Shown piece by piece: positions 20,724-44,572 of a stretch of DNA of 64,000 bases (position 1 is the first letter of the stretch; each line of letters opens with the position of its first letter). The position numbers were made by a program, and so were the translations under genes. The stretch comes from an uncultured Poribacteria bacterium (GTDB taxonomy: Bacteria > Poribacteria > WGA-4E > WGA-3G): assembly GCA_958296135.2 (NCBI GenBank), contig CATQHZ020000001.1, positions 4,128,001 to 4,192,000 of the forward strand, read 5' to 3'. The notes below the pieces were generated by a model. The model did not search any database. It was not told where the DNA came from and saw only the letters and a list, made by a program, of their open reading frames with translations.

Positions 20724-20950
20724 CCGCCTTTAACCGTAGCGCGAGGGCCGTCACGCCGAAACGCTGTCATCTCTGCCGCCTCGCTGCAGAGATGTCCACT
20801 GTCTCTCGCGATGCTCCGGCTGGGCGGCATGTTGAGGGACAGGCCCTCAACCTACGGCATTCCTGCCTTTAACCGTAGCGCGAGGGCCGTCACGCCGAAA
20901 CGCTGTCATCTCTGCCGCCTCGCTGCAGAGATGTCCACTGTCCCTCGCGA
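20724..20950. mobile_element. REP cluster: two REPs each carrying a 50-nt loop insertion, separated by an inverted REP
   Basis: REPs at 20735 and 20874 are interrupted between GGGCC and TGTC by identical 50-mers (20750-20799, 20889-20938); inverted REP at 20831-20856. Confidence 0.8.
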
Positions 20951-20982
20951 TGCCCAGCCTGAGACAACCGCCGGCGGTTTCA

Positions 20983-21975
20983 TTAATTGCCTAATATCGT
21001 ATTGCGGATGCGTTCAAAAACCTCAACCGCGTAGTGGAGATGTTCCTGAGAGGCGATGTTAAAAGAGATGCCGAAATTCTTCACCGTCACATTCGGCAGA
21101 TTTGCGCGGCACTCCACAATGTGAAGCGGCGTAAAATCGCCATGGATATCTACCCGAAAGTGCGTTGCGCGTTTTGAGGGATAGGTATCTAACCACCAGC
21201 ATCCGCCGATAGTCATGCGGAGTTTTGCGATGCGCGGGCGGACTGTCGCGCCGCACGATGTAGCATACCCGAAGAACTCGGAGGCGACGTTGAGCAGCTC
21301 CTTGTTCGTCTCTAGCGTCTCCATAAACAGTTCCTGCGTCATAAACCGATGTGCAGTTTCCCGATACGTCCGTTCTTCCTCTTTCAGGACAGTCCCGCCG
21401 AGGACGGTTTCCGTGGCGACTAAAATTTCATCGGGCGCGTGGTAGGAAAAATAGGAGATATAGTTGATGTCAATGTTTAAACTCCGCATGTATTCGGCAA
21501 CTTCTAGTACGCGCGCGTCAACACCTTCGGAGACTAGCACCAGGCGTTGTTTCTGATTGAACGCCGATTTCGGGATATCGCCGATGGAATACTCGAAGAA
21601 CTCGCTATGCAGTGCCGCCAGCGACGTGAATTCTTTCCCCTGTTGTTGAAACCACCGGTAAGCCAGCTGCTCCAATTCAATGTAGACGAGTTGGGCTACG
21701 CCCGCGGCGTATTCCAAAATCTGCGCGATGGCGGTGCGCGATGGGCGGCCGCGCTTGAGCTCAATGATAACGCAGTTCCCCTGCCGGTCTAACGCCAGCA
21801 AATCGATCTTCTGTTTTGACGTGCTGAGGGGCGGCTGCCGGCTGATGACGCAAAGCGGCTCGCCGAGAACCAGCGTCGGATCTTGCTCCAGCAAGTCTTC
21901 AAAGTCCCGTTCCGCGCCGAAACGCAGCGGTTCAAGTCTCCCAAATTTTCTCTCTTCCCAGCGATAAACTTCCAT
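20983..21975 (-). CDS. NucS/DUF91-like PD-(D/E)XK endonuclease domain protein
   Basis: ERDFEDLL, IDLLALDRQGNCVIIELKRG, AIAQILEYAA. Confidence 0.75.
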   Translation of the reverse strand: MEVYRWEERKFGRLEPLRFGAERDFEDLLEQDPTLVLGEPLCVISRQPPLSTSKQKIDLLALDRQGNCVIIELKRGRPSRTAIAQILEYAAGVAQLVYIELEQLAYRWFQQQGKEFTSLAALHSEFFEYSIGDIPKSAFNQKQRLVLVSEGVDARVLEVAEYMRSLNIDINYISYFSYHAPDEILVATETVLGGTVLKEEERTYRETAHRFMTQELFMETLETNKELLNVASEFFGYATSCGATVRPRIAKLRMTIGGCWWLDTYPSKRATHFRVDIHGDFTPLHIVECRANLPNVTVKNFGISFNIASQEHLHYAVEVFERIRNTILGN

Positions 21976-22048
21976 GTTTTTATTGCGTTTGGCAGCGGAC
22001 CCGGCTCTGCGTCTCGGCTGACGCGGGGTATGCCTTGGCTCAGATTGT

Positions 22049-42953: not shown

Positions 42954-42960
42954 TACGCTA

Positions 42961-44232
42961 TTATCTTGCTGCGTCACGGCGAATGCGCCGCAATGGGACA
43001 TACAGACAAACCGTCGCAACCAGCAAAATCCCTGCCAACACTGCATAAGGAGACGCATCCGCCTCATAAAGCCAACCGCCGAGGAGCGGCCCGAGGATAC
43101 GCCCCAGACTTAAAAATGCGTCCATAATGCCGATAGCCGTGCCTTGCCCAATGTGCGTCTGCTTAGAAATCCACGACGTATTCGTCGGACGGATGAGTTG
43201 GTTGCCGATGCCCGCAATAGCCAAATAACCCGTGAGCATGAGGAACCCACTTTCCGCCACCGCCGTAGCACCGCCACCCATCCCTGTCCCTCGCATCGCG
43301 TGGAATGACAAAAGTGCCATCCCTACCGCGTTCAGCACCATCCCGACGAGGATGAGCCGCCGTTCCCCGAACCTGTTAATCAACCGTCCGAGTAAGCCGC
43401 CTTGCAACGGCACGACAATCACACCGATTATCGCGAACATCCACCCCATCTCTTTTTGTCCGTAGTTCCACCCTTTTTCAATGAAAAGCGGAAACGTCGC
43501 CTCCAATCCCGCGAAACTGAAGGTAGTAAAAAACGCAACGAGGAAGAGCGGATTGAGCGGCGATTTCAACGCTGTCCAGAATTCCTTGTAACCGTAGTGC
43601 GAAGGCCTGTCCCTCTCACGCTCCCGACCGGATTCGTCGTGTTTCTCTCCCTCCGATAGGCGCGCTTTCAAACCGCGTCTATCGACATGAGGGAGCGACT
43701 CTGGCAACAGGAGCATCACGAAGAAAAAGGTGAGCAGCGACAAACCGCCTGCGACAAAGAACGGCACATCGTGCCGCCCCAGGATGCCGCCAATCGCAGG
43801 CCCCAGGATGAAACCGAGCCCCATCGCCGCGCCCATCAATCCCATCCCTTTCCCGCGCGCCGCTAACGTTGTGACATCGGCGACGTAGGCCATCACCGTC
43901 GGTAGCACTGCTGCTGAAGCGATGCCGGCTGCACCCCGCGCGATGAAGAGCCACCCGTAACTTTTCGCAAGTCCGAAACCGACTAAAGCGATGGCGTTAC
44001 CGAGCAAACCGAGCAGAATCGCCGGCTTTCGGCCATGCTTGTCGGACAGTCTGCCCCACAGCGGTGCAAACACCAGTTGCATCCCGGAATAGATGGACAT
44101 CAATACGGCAATCTCGGTGGGCGTTGCCCCGAGATCTTCGGCGTAATAGGCGAGGTTAGGAATGATGATGCCAAACCCAAGCATCACAAAAAATAGGGTT
44201 AAAAATAGCAGCAGCAGTCTCGATTTTTCCAT
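42961..44232 (-). CDS. MFS transporter, TetA/DHA1-like
   Basis: Motif A GRLSDKHGRK, GLGFILGPAIGG, LPES, 12 TM segments. Confidence 0.88.
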   Translation of the reverse strand: MEKSRLLLLFLTLFFVMLGFGIIIPNLAYYAEDLGATPTEIAVLMSIYSGMQLVFAPLWGRLSDKHGRKPAILLGLLGNAIALVGFGLAKSYGWLFIARGAAGIASAAVLPTVMAYVADVTTLAARGKGMGLMGAAMGLGFILGPAIGGILGRHDVPFFVAGGLSLLTFFFVMLLLPESLPHVDRRGLKARLSEGEKHDESGRERERDRPSHYGYKEFWTALKSPLNPLFLVAFFTTFSFAGLEATFPLFIEKGWNYGQKEMGWMFAIIGVIVVPLQGGLLGRLINRFGERRLILVGMVLNAVGMALLSFHAMRGTGMGGGATAVAESGFLMLTGYLAIAGIGNQLIRPTNTSWISKQTHIGQGTAIGIMDAFLSLGRILGPLLGGWLYEADASPYAVLAGILLVATVCLYVPLRRIRRDAAR

Positions 44233-44273
44233 ATTTTATTTTGGCACAAAGCGTAACGAACACAACATCCAAC

Positions 44274-44572
44274 CGCAGCGCGAGAGCCTGTTCCTCGCAA
44301 GACTTGGCAAACAAGGTAAGGCCACCCCATTCCACCGTAGCGCGAGGGCCGTCACGCCGAAACTTTGTCATCTCTGCCGCCTCGCTGCAGAGATGTCCAC
44401 TGTCCCTCGCAAGGCTTGGCAAAACCACGTGCCACCGTAGTGCGAGGGCCGTCACGGTCACGCCTACAGAAAACGTGCGTGTGTCGCCCCGCGTAAACAC
44501 GCCACCTTTAACGTTGTCATCTCTGCCGCCTCGCTGCAGAGATGTCCACTGTCCCTCGCAAGGCTTGGCAAA
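44274..44572. mobile_element. Three tandem REP units with no insert, a 50-nt insert and a 99-nt insert
   Basis: REP starts at 44274, 44336 and 44436; each is followed by CCTCGCAAG(A/G)CTTGGCAAA; inserts at 44351-44400 and 44451-44549. Confidence 0.8.

Follow-up and report, generated by a model that had tools for sequence, protein, structure and literature searches.

A REP-like 50-nt cassette at a single loop bond of REP hairpins in the genome of an uncultured Poribacteria bacterium

Introduction

How does a 50-nt sequence come to sit, exact to the nucleotide, in the hairpin loop of repetitive extragenic palindromic (REP) sequences, other copies of which are empty in the same array? The question is raised by a 64,000-nt stretch of DNA, hereafter the window, from the genome of an uncultured Poribacteria bacterium (assembly GCA_958296135.2). 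The window corresponds to G000:C1:4128001-4192000, where G000 is the genome studied and C1 one of its contigs. An earlier note, made from the sequence of the window, had described the 50-mer as a non-autonomous, site-specific element mobilized in trans. We refer to the 50-mer as the cassette, to the GTAG-tagged REP which hosts it as family A, and to the other host repeats as families E and H. G001 and G002 are congeners of G000; completeness is 94.7% for G000 and 86% for G001. The description of a non-autonomous unit is borne out by the genome: the cassette is gene-less, has fixed ends, has been gained or lost repeatedly at one bond, without target duplication, and occurs in independent host contexts, namely three repeat families.

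Results

The cassette occupies one bond in three repeat families

In the window, the 50-mers at 20750, 20889 and 44351 (the latter with 2 substitutions) are all preceded by GGGCC and followed by TGTC, with no duplication when compared to the empty REP, just as the earlier note had it. A parse of the whole genome extends this to 207 filled family-A units, 143 short and 64 expanded, all of them at one loop bond and without target duplication; 175 of the 207 lie outside open reading frames (ORFs) according to a crude ORF call. The same parse yields 1340 empty matches (1172 once reverse reads are dropped) and 170 REPs with an AAAACC loop. Another hairpin cargo, about 23 nt long and hereafter the second cargo, occupies the cassette's bond in 214 further family-A REPs, in CC and AAAACC loops alike (e.g., at 217939 and 4791650 of C1), and both congeners hold their own related version of it at the matching bond (loci L075-L104 of G001 and G002). 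As the second cargo uses the bond of the cassette, the loop can be considered a general exchange point.

Filling depends on the loop sequence. Cassettes are present in 178 of 737 GGGCC^TGTCC loops as against 0 of 209 GGTCC^TGTGC loops and, despite the 170 REPs with an AAAACC loop, this loop precedes none of 167 cassette left ends. Among arm subtypes with GGGCC, three hold 91, 29, and 21 filled copies, the arms being matched pairs. The family-E site is the 3′ foot of the left hairpin; empty units have CC^TGTT or CT^TGTT there, the former in 11 of 69 family-E left ends. Family H hosts one copy (C1:1798842), and its empty sister at C1:818112 keeps the register. The target common to the three families is CY^YGT, without duplication. 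The earlier note had proposed C^TGT: its claim of site specificity at one bond stands, but a free C^TGT is too simple and CY^YGT fits better. A core dinucleotide on both sides, as expected for IS110/IS1111 insertion sequences (ISs), was not found; in family A the two flanks share one C, and with a left flank ending in T they share no base.

Common descent may link the A and E sites. Three cassette loop sub-types are each present both in A and in non-A hosts, which could reflect either transfer on separate occasions or conversion via the cassette's own ends. Other GTAG...CTAC units of G000 have C at -2 in 70% and G at +2 in 80% of 96 cases, part of which may correspond to stem extension.

The cassette is species-specific: its end was found in G000 alone among 176 genomes, although family A is genus-wide. 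The exact 17-mer of its right end occurs 193 times in G000, far more than chance would give, and in none of the 175 other genomes of the phylum (reversed control, 0), whereas family A gave 408 matches in G000 and 668 and 2218 in the two congeners, the latter number being that of G002. As family A is abundant in the congeners while the cassette end is limited to G000, the empty loop is ancestral. A scan of metagenome contigs gave two matches, in unrelated-looking sequence and at chance level. The site orthologous to that of the 25424 copy holds unrelated repeats in the congeners, so no polarity is obtained from it.

Filled and empty units are mixed within sister groups

Units were grouped by near-identical flanks on both sides. 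Of the 162 clusters obtained, 29 include a filled unit and 22 of these 29 are mixed, with empty units, AAAACC loops or the second cargo (the latter in 9 clusters) beside the cassette. Sister groups alone give no direction; swaps with the second cargo and the filling of rare arm types need gains. The filled unit of cluster 18 has the two rare arms of its empty sister, which leaves only 4 and 5 matching bases.

In 137 full-length copies, polymorphisms were compared across the insert. Linkage between the two host arms is tight (p=3.5e-19 and 3e-14), whereas single-nucleotide polymorphisms (SNPs) of the cassette are unlinked to host-arm type (20 tests, lowest p=0.035). Unlinked SNPs need either recombination among copies or recurrent mutation, unless they stem from an assembly artefact. 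All 55 filled pairs within 1.5 kb share the strand. An arm differs in 14 of 34 filled/empty sister pairs, close to what is found for empty/empty pairs (92 of 244), and no clear asymmetry came out of a test for left-arm co-conversion (5 left, 3 right, 6 both, 20 neither).

The orientation of filled units is biased with respect to GC skew

Orientation was scored relative to the local GC skew after masking of repeats and collapsing of arrays, and filled REPs are moderately biased. The host's GTAG strand coincides with the G-rich strand in 50 of 156 filled arrays versus 151 of 320 empty GGGCC arrays; accordingly, the GTGG strand of the cassette does so in 106 of 156 versus 169 of 320. The difference persists when filled and empty units are stratified by host type (odds ratio 0.57, p=0.009) and when solitary units are considered (GTGG strand on the G-rich strand in 29 of 41 filled versus 43 of 92 empty, p=0.014). 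The second cargo shows the same bias as the cassette, the GTAG strand being on the G-rich strand in 41 of 121 (41:80) and 17 of 57 (17:40) cases for its sub-types. With the replication strand deduced from skew, the GTGG strand, presumably the active one, tends toward the lagging-strand template. This preference is reported as established for Y1 single-strand transposition (PMC5027513). The own loop cargo of G002 gave 38:62 without a skew threshold and 12:11 at the strictest one, with skew available from 40 windows of 20 kb and for 100 of 164 matches.

Two segments of C1, at about 0.2-0.45 Mb and 2.85-3.25 Mb, have a GC skew opposite to that of the surrounding replichore; these are either recent inversions or assembly joins.

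The cassette resembles a REP

The ends of the cassette are GTYAC on the left and CCAC on the right. When read on the minus strand, it consists of GTGG, one base, a hairpin with a 9-bp stem and a 13-nt tail. Either strand folds into the hairpin CATCTCTGC/GCAGAGATG (z of -2.7 and, on the minus strand, -2.9; 2 of 200 shuffles are as good). A GT[AG]G tag directly 5′ of the hairpin and a unit of 20–50 nt in many copies, both of them features by which REPs served by REP-associated tyrosine transposases (RAYTs) are recognized, are thus found in the cassette. Its second foot is CAAC, CAAA or CAGC, followed by 13 more bases; this tail forms a stem of 3-4 bp at most, the whole cassette having one strong stem. 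The 13-nt tail looks REP-derived too. It is found in an E repeat without the hairpin at C1:705123, running into the CTAC foot, and elsewhere joined to other cargos. Compensatory changes in the stem include an A-T swap in 5 copies and single others, one of them in an E copy (the covariation scan was loose, with 290 matches, many of them false, and clear cases alone are cited). Altogether, a derivative of a REP seems a better description of the cassette than a foreign element.

The 99-nt version, said to carry extra internal sequence, does so, and the extra is one 49-nt tandem unit. The same unit yields forms of 148 and 197 nt, expanded lengths peaking at 99, 148, and 197 nt; a loop of variable length between constant stems gives forms of 34 to 91 nt. 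The 49-nt unit is itself GTAG-tagged on the opposite strand and occurs in tandems of several copies, also outside family A (44457-44505 in the window; G000:C1:4701533-4701637).

Rearranged and decayed forms were observed as well. In the cassettes at C1:136733, 1776360 and 3105079 the stems are intact and the inner loop between them is reverse-complemented, which points to template switching. A chimera at C1:3106853 (minus strand) joins a family-A left arm, the cassette and a family-E right part. A decayed cassette-like stretch at C1:2594630 (E=0.008), at the start of an apparent ORF and outside any REP, is either a chance match or an old in-frame insertion.

A RAYT-like gene is the best candidate for a partner enzyme

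The earlier note had cited the IS110 and IS200/IS605 families as precedents; a parent from either is not supported by the genome. No match to PF02371 or PF01548, the IS110 transposase domains, was found in G000. A search for the IS91 family gave no match either, its control likewise giving none. Its two Y1 genes, 26% identical to each other, score 25.3 and 36 against the IS200 profile NF033573 (cut-off, 55) and score better as RAYTs. One of them, L001 (C1:3734.4-3734.9 kb), is above the RAYT cut-off with 127.6 bits, and the REPs adjoining it are of other kinds. The second, P0001 (C1:4791068-4791604), has the HUH (DHFH), WQ and YIENNP motifs, with DHFH in place of the NH[IFV]H of subclass 2.4. 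P0001 is flanked on both sides by family-A REPs, filled and empty, and no free cassettes are found there. Its query did not find it in either congener, which matches the range of the cassette. A GTDB scan with P0001 gave 18 distant relatives (28-51% identity), and relatives at 82-84% also exist. P0001 is the best candidate, and the likely mover of the cassette.

A fragment of 55 residues at G000:C1:3058988-3059152, 56% identical to the L001 RAYT, is a probable third, broken RAYT gene. A relative of L001 in G002 (L126, G002:C1:3146083-3149418; 59% identical) lies beside a different, E-like REP family, and the pairing of RAYTs and REPs seems to change between congeners.

It had been proposed to search for longer elements that share the ends of the cassette and enclose a transposase or recombinase gene. 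None with a transposase-like gene was found. Pairing left with right ends gave, besides one uninspected 400-nt pair, lengths that rise by about 49 nt at a time to 338 nt, some false internal starts included. The list of unpaired left ends has 43 entries; inspection by eye covered the 14 for which a candidate right end lies within about 9 kb. The partners of these are separate complete cassettes or chance matches, and a host-end motif lies within 260 nt in 12 of the 14. Seven enclosed ORFs were scanned in Pfam; none is transposase-like and 4 match no family.

TnpB elements were considered as a partner and rejected, the 34 TnpB matches of the genome belonging to elements with ends unrelated to those of the cassette. 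These 34 loci of C1 (L003-L022 and others) hold near-identical elements, several of which carry small, variable inserts in their 3′ non-coding part. From their ends and two upstream ORFs resembling helix-turn-helix and resolvase proteins, we take their organization to be IS607-like.

Features of the window

Features are listed in Table 1. Empty, filled and expanded units do lie side by side in the 44274-44572 array, and both the diverged 48-nt copy, again followed by TGT, and the truncated left end at 32332 were found where the earlier note had placed them.

Table 1. Cassettes and host repeats in the window (positions counted from its first nucleotide)
Position	Strand	Feature
18869..19599	.	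Neighbouring array of 12 empty family-A REPs
20736..20810	+	Family-A REP with GTAG tag and 8-bp stem, cassette in loop
20750..20799	+	50-nt cassette: 13-nt tail, 9-bp-core hairpin, right end CCAC; its minus strand starts exactly at GTGG
20831..20855	-	Empty inverted family-A REP of a different arm subtype, between two filled units
20875..20949	+	Family-A REP around second cassette
20889..20938	+	Second 50-nt cassette, identical to the 20750 copy
25394..25501	-	Host repeat of family E with GTAG ... CTAC ends; limits approximate
25424..25471	-	Diverged 48-nt cassette in family-E repeat, at 3′ foot of left hairpin
32332..32354	+	Truncated cassette, left end only, in family-E repeat
44275..44299	+	Degenerate empty family-A REP, linker as in the rest of its array
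44351..44400	+	50-nt cassette with 2 substitutions, in REP at 44337-44411
44451..44549	+	99-nt expanded cassette, in REP at 44437-44560
44457..44505	-	Single copy of the 49-nt tandem unit, with a GTAG tag on the minus strand; limits approximate

Several REPs of the empty array at 18869 have the ATGCTCCGG linker and the inverted partner type seen in the filled unit at 20736. All cassettes of the window are near gene ends or between ordinary genes (for a VWA protein, an MFS transporter, DnaE and an aminotransferase), and read contigs with unique flanks agree with the assembly on both sides of them, in one sample that is possibly the source of the assembly. An Rfam scan of the window gave no match. 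The window also contains two large restriction-modification genes, at 39684-42953 and 49971-53222 (Eco57I/MmeI-like and Type ISP). The small contigs C2-C4 of the genome have GC contents of 37%, 67%, and 60%, as against 54% for C1, and may be foreign to it.

Discussion

The reading that we favour, to which we grant about an even chance, is that RAYT-driven single-strand insertion seeds the cassette and that short-homology copying between family-A loops accounts for its main spread. A RAYT, with P0001 as the best candidate, would bind REP hairpins on the lagging-strand template exposed at the replication fork and nick the target bond; the GTGG strand of the cassette would then be joined in (5′ target ...ACR, then GTGG); and most of the approximately 200 family-A copies would arise by short-homology copying between family-A loops, for which GGGCC on the left would be required and which would shuffle the cassette SNPs. 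As GGGCC is needed, the second cargo shares the bond and the SNPs are shuffled, most of the spreading is probably due to copying from REP to REP. Cleavage of REP substrates and strand exchange between them by a RAYT have been reported in vitro (PMC3333891). That the cassette is a REP-sized single-strand transposon, homing to one phosphodiester bond inside other REPs by means of a domesticated transposase and so a repeat parasitizing repeats, is a further-reaching reading that we consider less likely than not.

A number of observations weigh against the RAYT-driven reading. Concerning the enzyme, P0001 reaches 57 bits, below the 80-bit cut-off of NF047646, and the REPs that flank it may simply have accumulated there. 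G002, with its 2218 family-A matches, has its own loop cargo and no detectable relative of P0001, so loop filling does not need P0001. Junction chemistry is a weak point. The RAYTs tested in PMC8266576 are reported to cleave C|T or C|A in wild-type substrates; the right junction of the cassette is C|T or C|C and the left one C|G or T|G, so that the junctions are off the published chemistry on either strand and the right one alone fits. Clean transposition would keep cassette SNPs linked, but those at positions 3, 14, and 28 are mutually unlinked. No circle junction was found in the assembly (13 loose matches, all unrelated) or in the read contigs, which are from one sample and drop rare forms. 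As for orientation, the bias is missing at 1.62-2.85 Mb (14:14), runs the other way at 0-0.2 Mb (8:4), is not significant in inverted pairs (9:16, p=0.23) and is not seen in the 14 non-A copies (6 vs 8). It ranks 21 of 251 in a circular-shift test. Empty C-type hosts are weakly biased likewise (75:108, p=0.018), with p=0.10 for filled versus empty C-type, and orientation-dependent loss could give the same pattern.

Among the alternatives, the one that survives best dispenses with a transposase step, and we consider it rather unlikely. The cassette would have arisen in family-E repeats and, by few template switches on few matching bases, passed into A and H; gene conversion or replication template switching among family-A loops would have done the rest. 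Several results agree with it: filling is limited to loops with the donor's own left context; cassette SNPs are shuffled, and loop inversions and an A-left/E-right chimera exist; the second cargo sits at the matching site with a matching strand bias; close filled pairs share one strand without exception; and arms differ between filled and empty sisters about as often as between empty ones. Against it, both ends are nucleotide-exact in three hosts of which CY^YGT is the sole common sequence, the host arms are linked across the insert with the cassette unlinked to both, and the filled unit of cluster 18 retains both rare arms with so few matching bases left.

[quoted passage not shown] The variable loop between constant stems and the lack of duplication agree with such an origin, and the gene-less ssr9 module of ISPpu9, of the IS110 family, offers a precedent: it is reported at one position of REPs, and this transposase-free module can form circles (10.1101/2025.01.17.633520). 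IS621 and IS1397 are likewise described as inserting at one REP position (PMC3184786). However, the genome has no IS110 enzyme, both Y1 genes are below the IS200 cut-off, the TnpB elements have unrelated ends, no core dinucleotide is common to both sides, the right end is missing from the 175 related genomes and the two metagenome matches are chance-like; in addition, the cassette is far smaller than these three elements. IS1397 is also said to make a short target duplication. With IS200/IS605 elements, as described in PMC5027513, the cassette shares the precise empty site, the absence of target duplication and, in a bias that is uneven along the chromosome, what may be an orientation toward the lagging-strand template; unlike theirs, its targets are limited to other repeats, and no IS200-type TnpA exceeds the cut-off in G000. 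It has one strong hairpin, besides the stem of 3-4 bp in its tail.

Improbable as well, and largely refuted here, is the case that the earlier note had named as its refutation, in which one ancestral family-A insertion was amplified passively, with mixed arrays arising by repeated precise hairpin loss: the lack of direction in sister groups suits it and orientation-dependent deletion could perhaps also bias strands, but it fails because it does not give linked arms together with unlinked cassette SNPs, and because 22 of the 29 clusters are mixed, all GGGCC arm subtypes are filled with matched arm pairs, the second cargo is swapped in 9 clusters, several cassette sub-types coexist in A, and families E and H are occupied too.

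Known REP systems come closest. REPs, bacterial interspersed mosaic elements and RAYTs (TnpA-REP), as presented in PMC6006769, PMC3333891 and PMC8266576, share with the cassette a GT[AG]G tag 5′ of a hairpin, a size of about 50 nt, hundreds of copies, RAYT-like genes and mosaic arrays; REPs of subclass 2.4 have been reported inserted in their own RAYT genes (PMC6006769). The ‘double foot’ REPs of this subclass have GT[AG]G at 5′ and C[TC]AC at 3′ (PMC6006769); the anatomy of the cassette is close to theirs, with GTGG, then a degenerate second foot and the 13-nt tail. It also differs in being a REP-like unit at a single bond inside other REPs and in its junctions, which are not C|T at both ends. 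Tagged REPs regularly inside another palindromic repeat have been described as GTAG-23 of T. roseum, for which many empty targets are indicated, GTAG-15 dimers of A. variabilis and CGTC-1 of H. neapolitanus (PMC3733652). Unlike these cases as described there, the host is here a GTAG REP, three host families and several cargos per bond are involved, and repeated gain and strand bias were measured. The REP doublets forming hairpins (REPINs) of Pseudomonas fluorescens are reported as non-autonomous and RAYT-associated, the excised REPIN being a hairpin with a single-stranded tail (PMC3116915); in contrast, the cassette has one tag and one hairpin instead of two inverted REPs, and its tail is 3′ on the tagged strand, not 5′. 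The cassette works like a REP-type non-autonomous mobile unit, with neither REPIN nor IS-derivative status shown for it. Our literature search, the coverage of which leaves out most subscription journals, returned no paper on this cassette or on a replication bias of loop-filled REPs.

If the cassette is such a homing single-strand transposon, the genome would provide about 200 nucleotide-exact, paired filled and empty footprints of RAYT integration in vivo, with a target rule of their own (CY^YGT; ACR^RG on the active strand) and a preference for the lagging strand. With the cassette, the target rule that REP movement follows in vivo becomes open to a direct test. Ends and empty sites are known exactly in this genome, the host contexts number three, the GGTCC and AAAACC loops serve as negative controls, an outgroup is free of the cassette, and the candidate enzyme P0001 resembles a RAYT subclass without prior testing; together these define oligonucleotide substrates for a direct assay. 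Should this enzyme not be involved, the cassette would still clearly exemplify homing-like exchange at hairpin loops. If it moves as single-stranded DNA with a host enzyme, as is likely, it is a record of how REP-type repeats spread.

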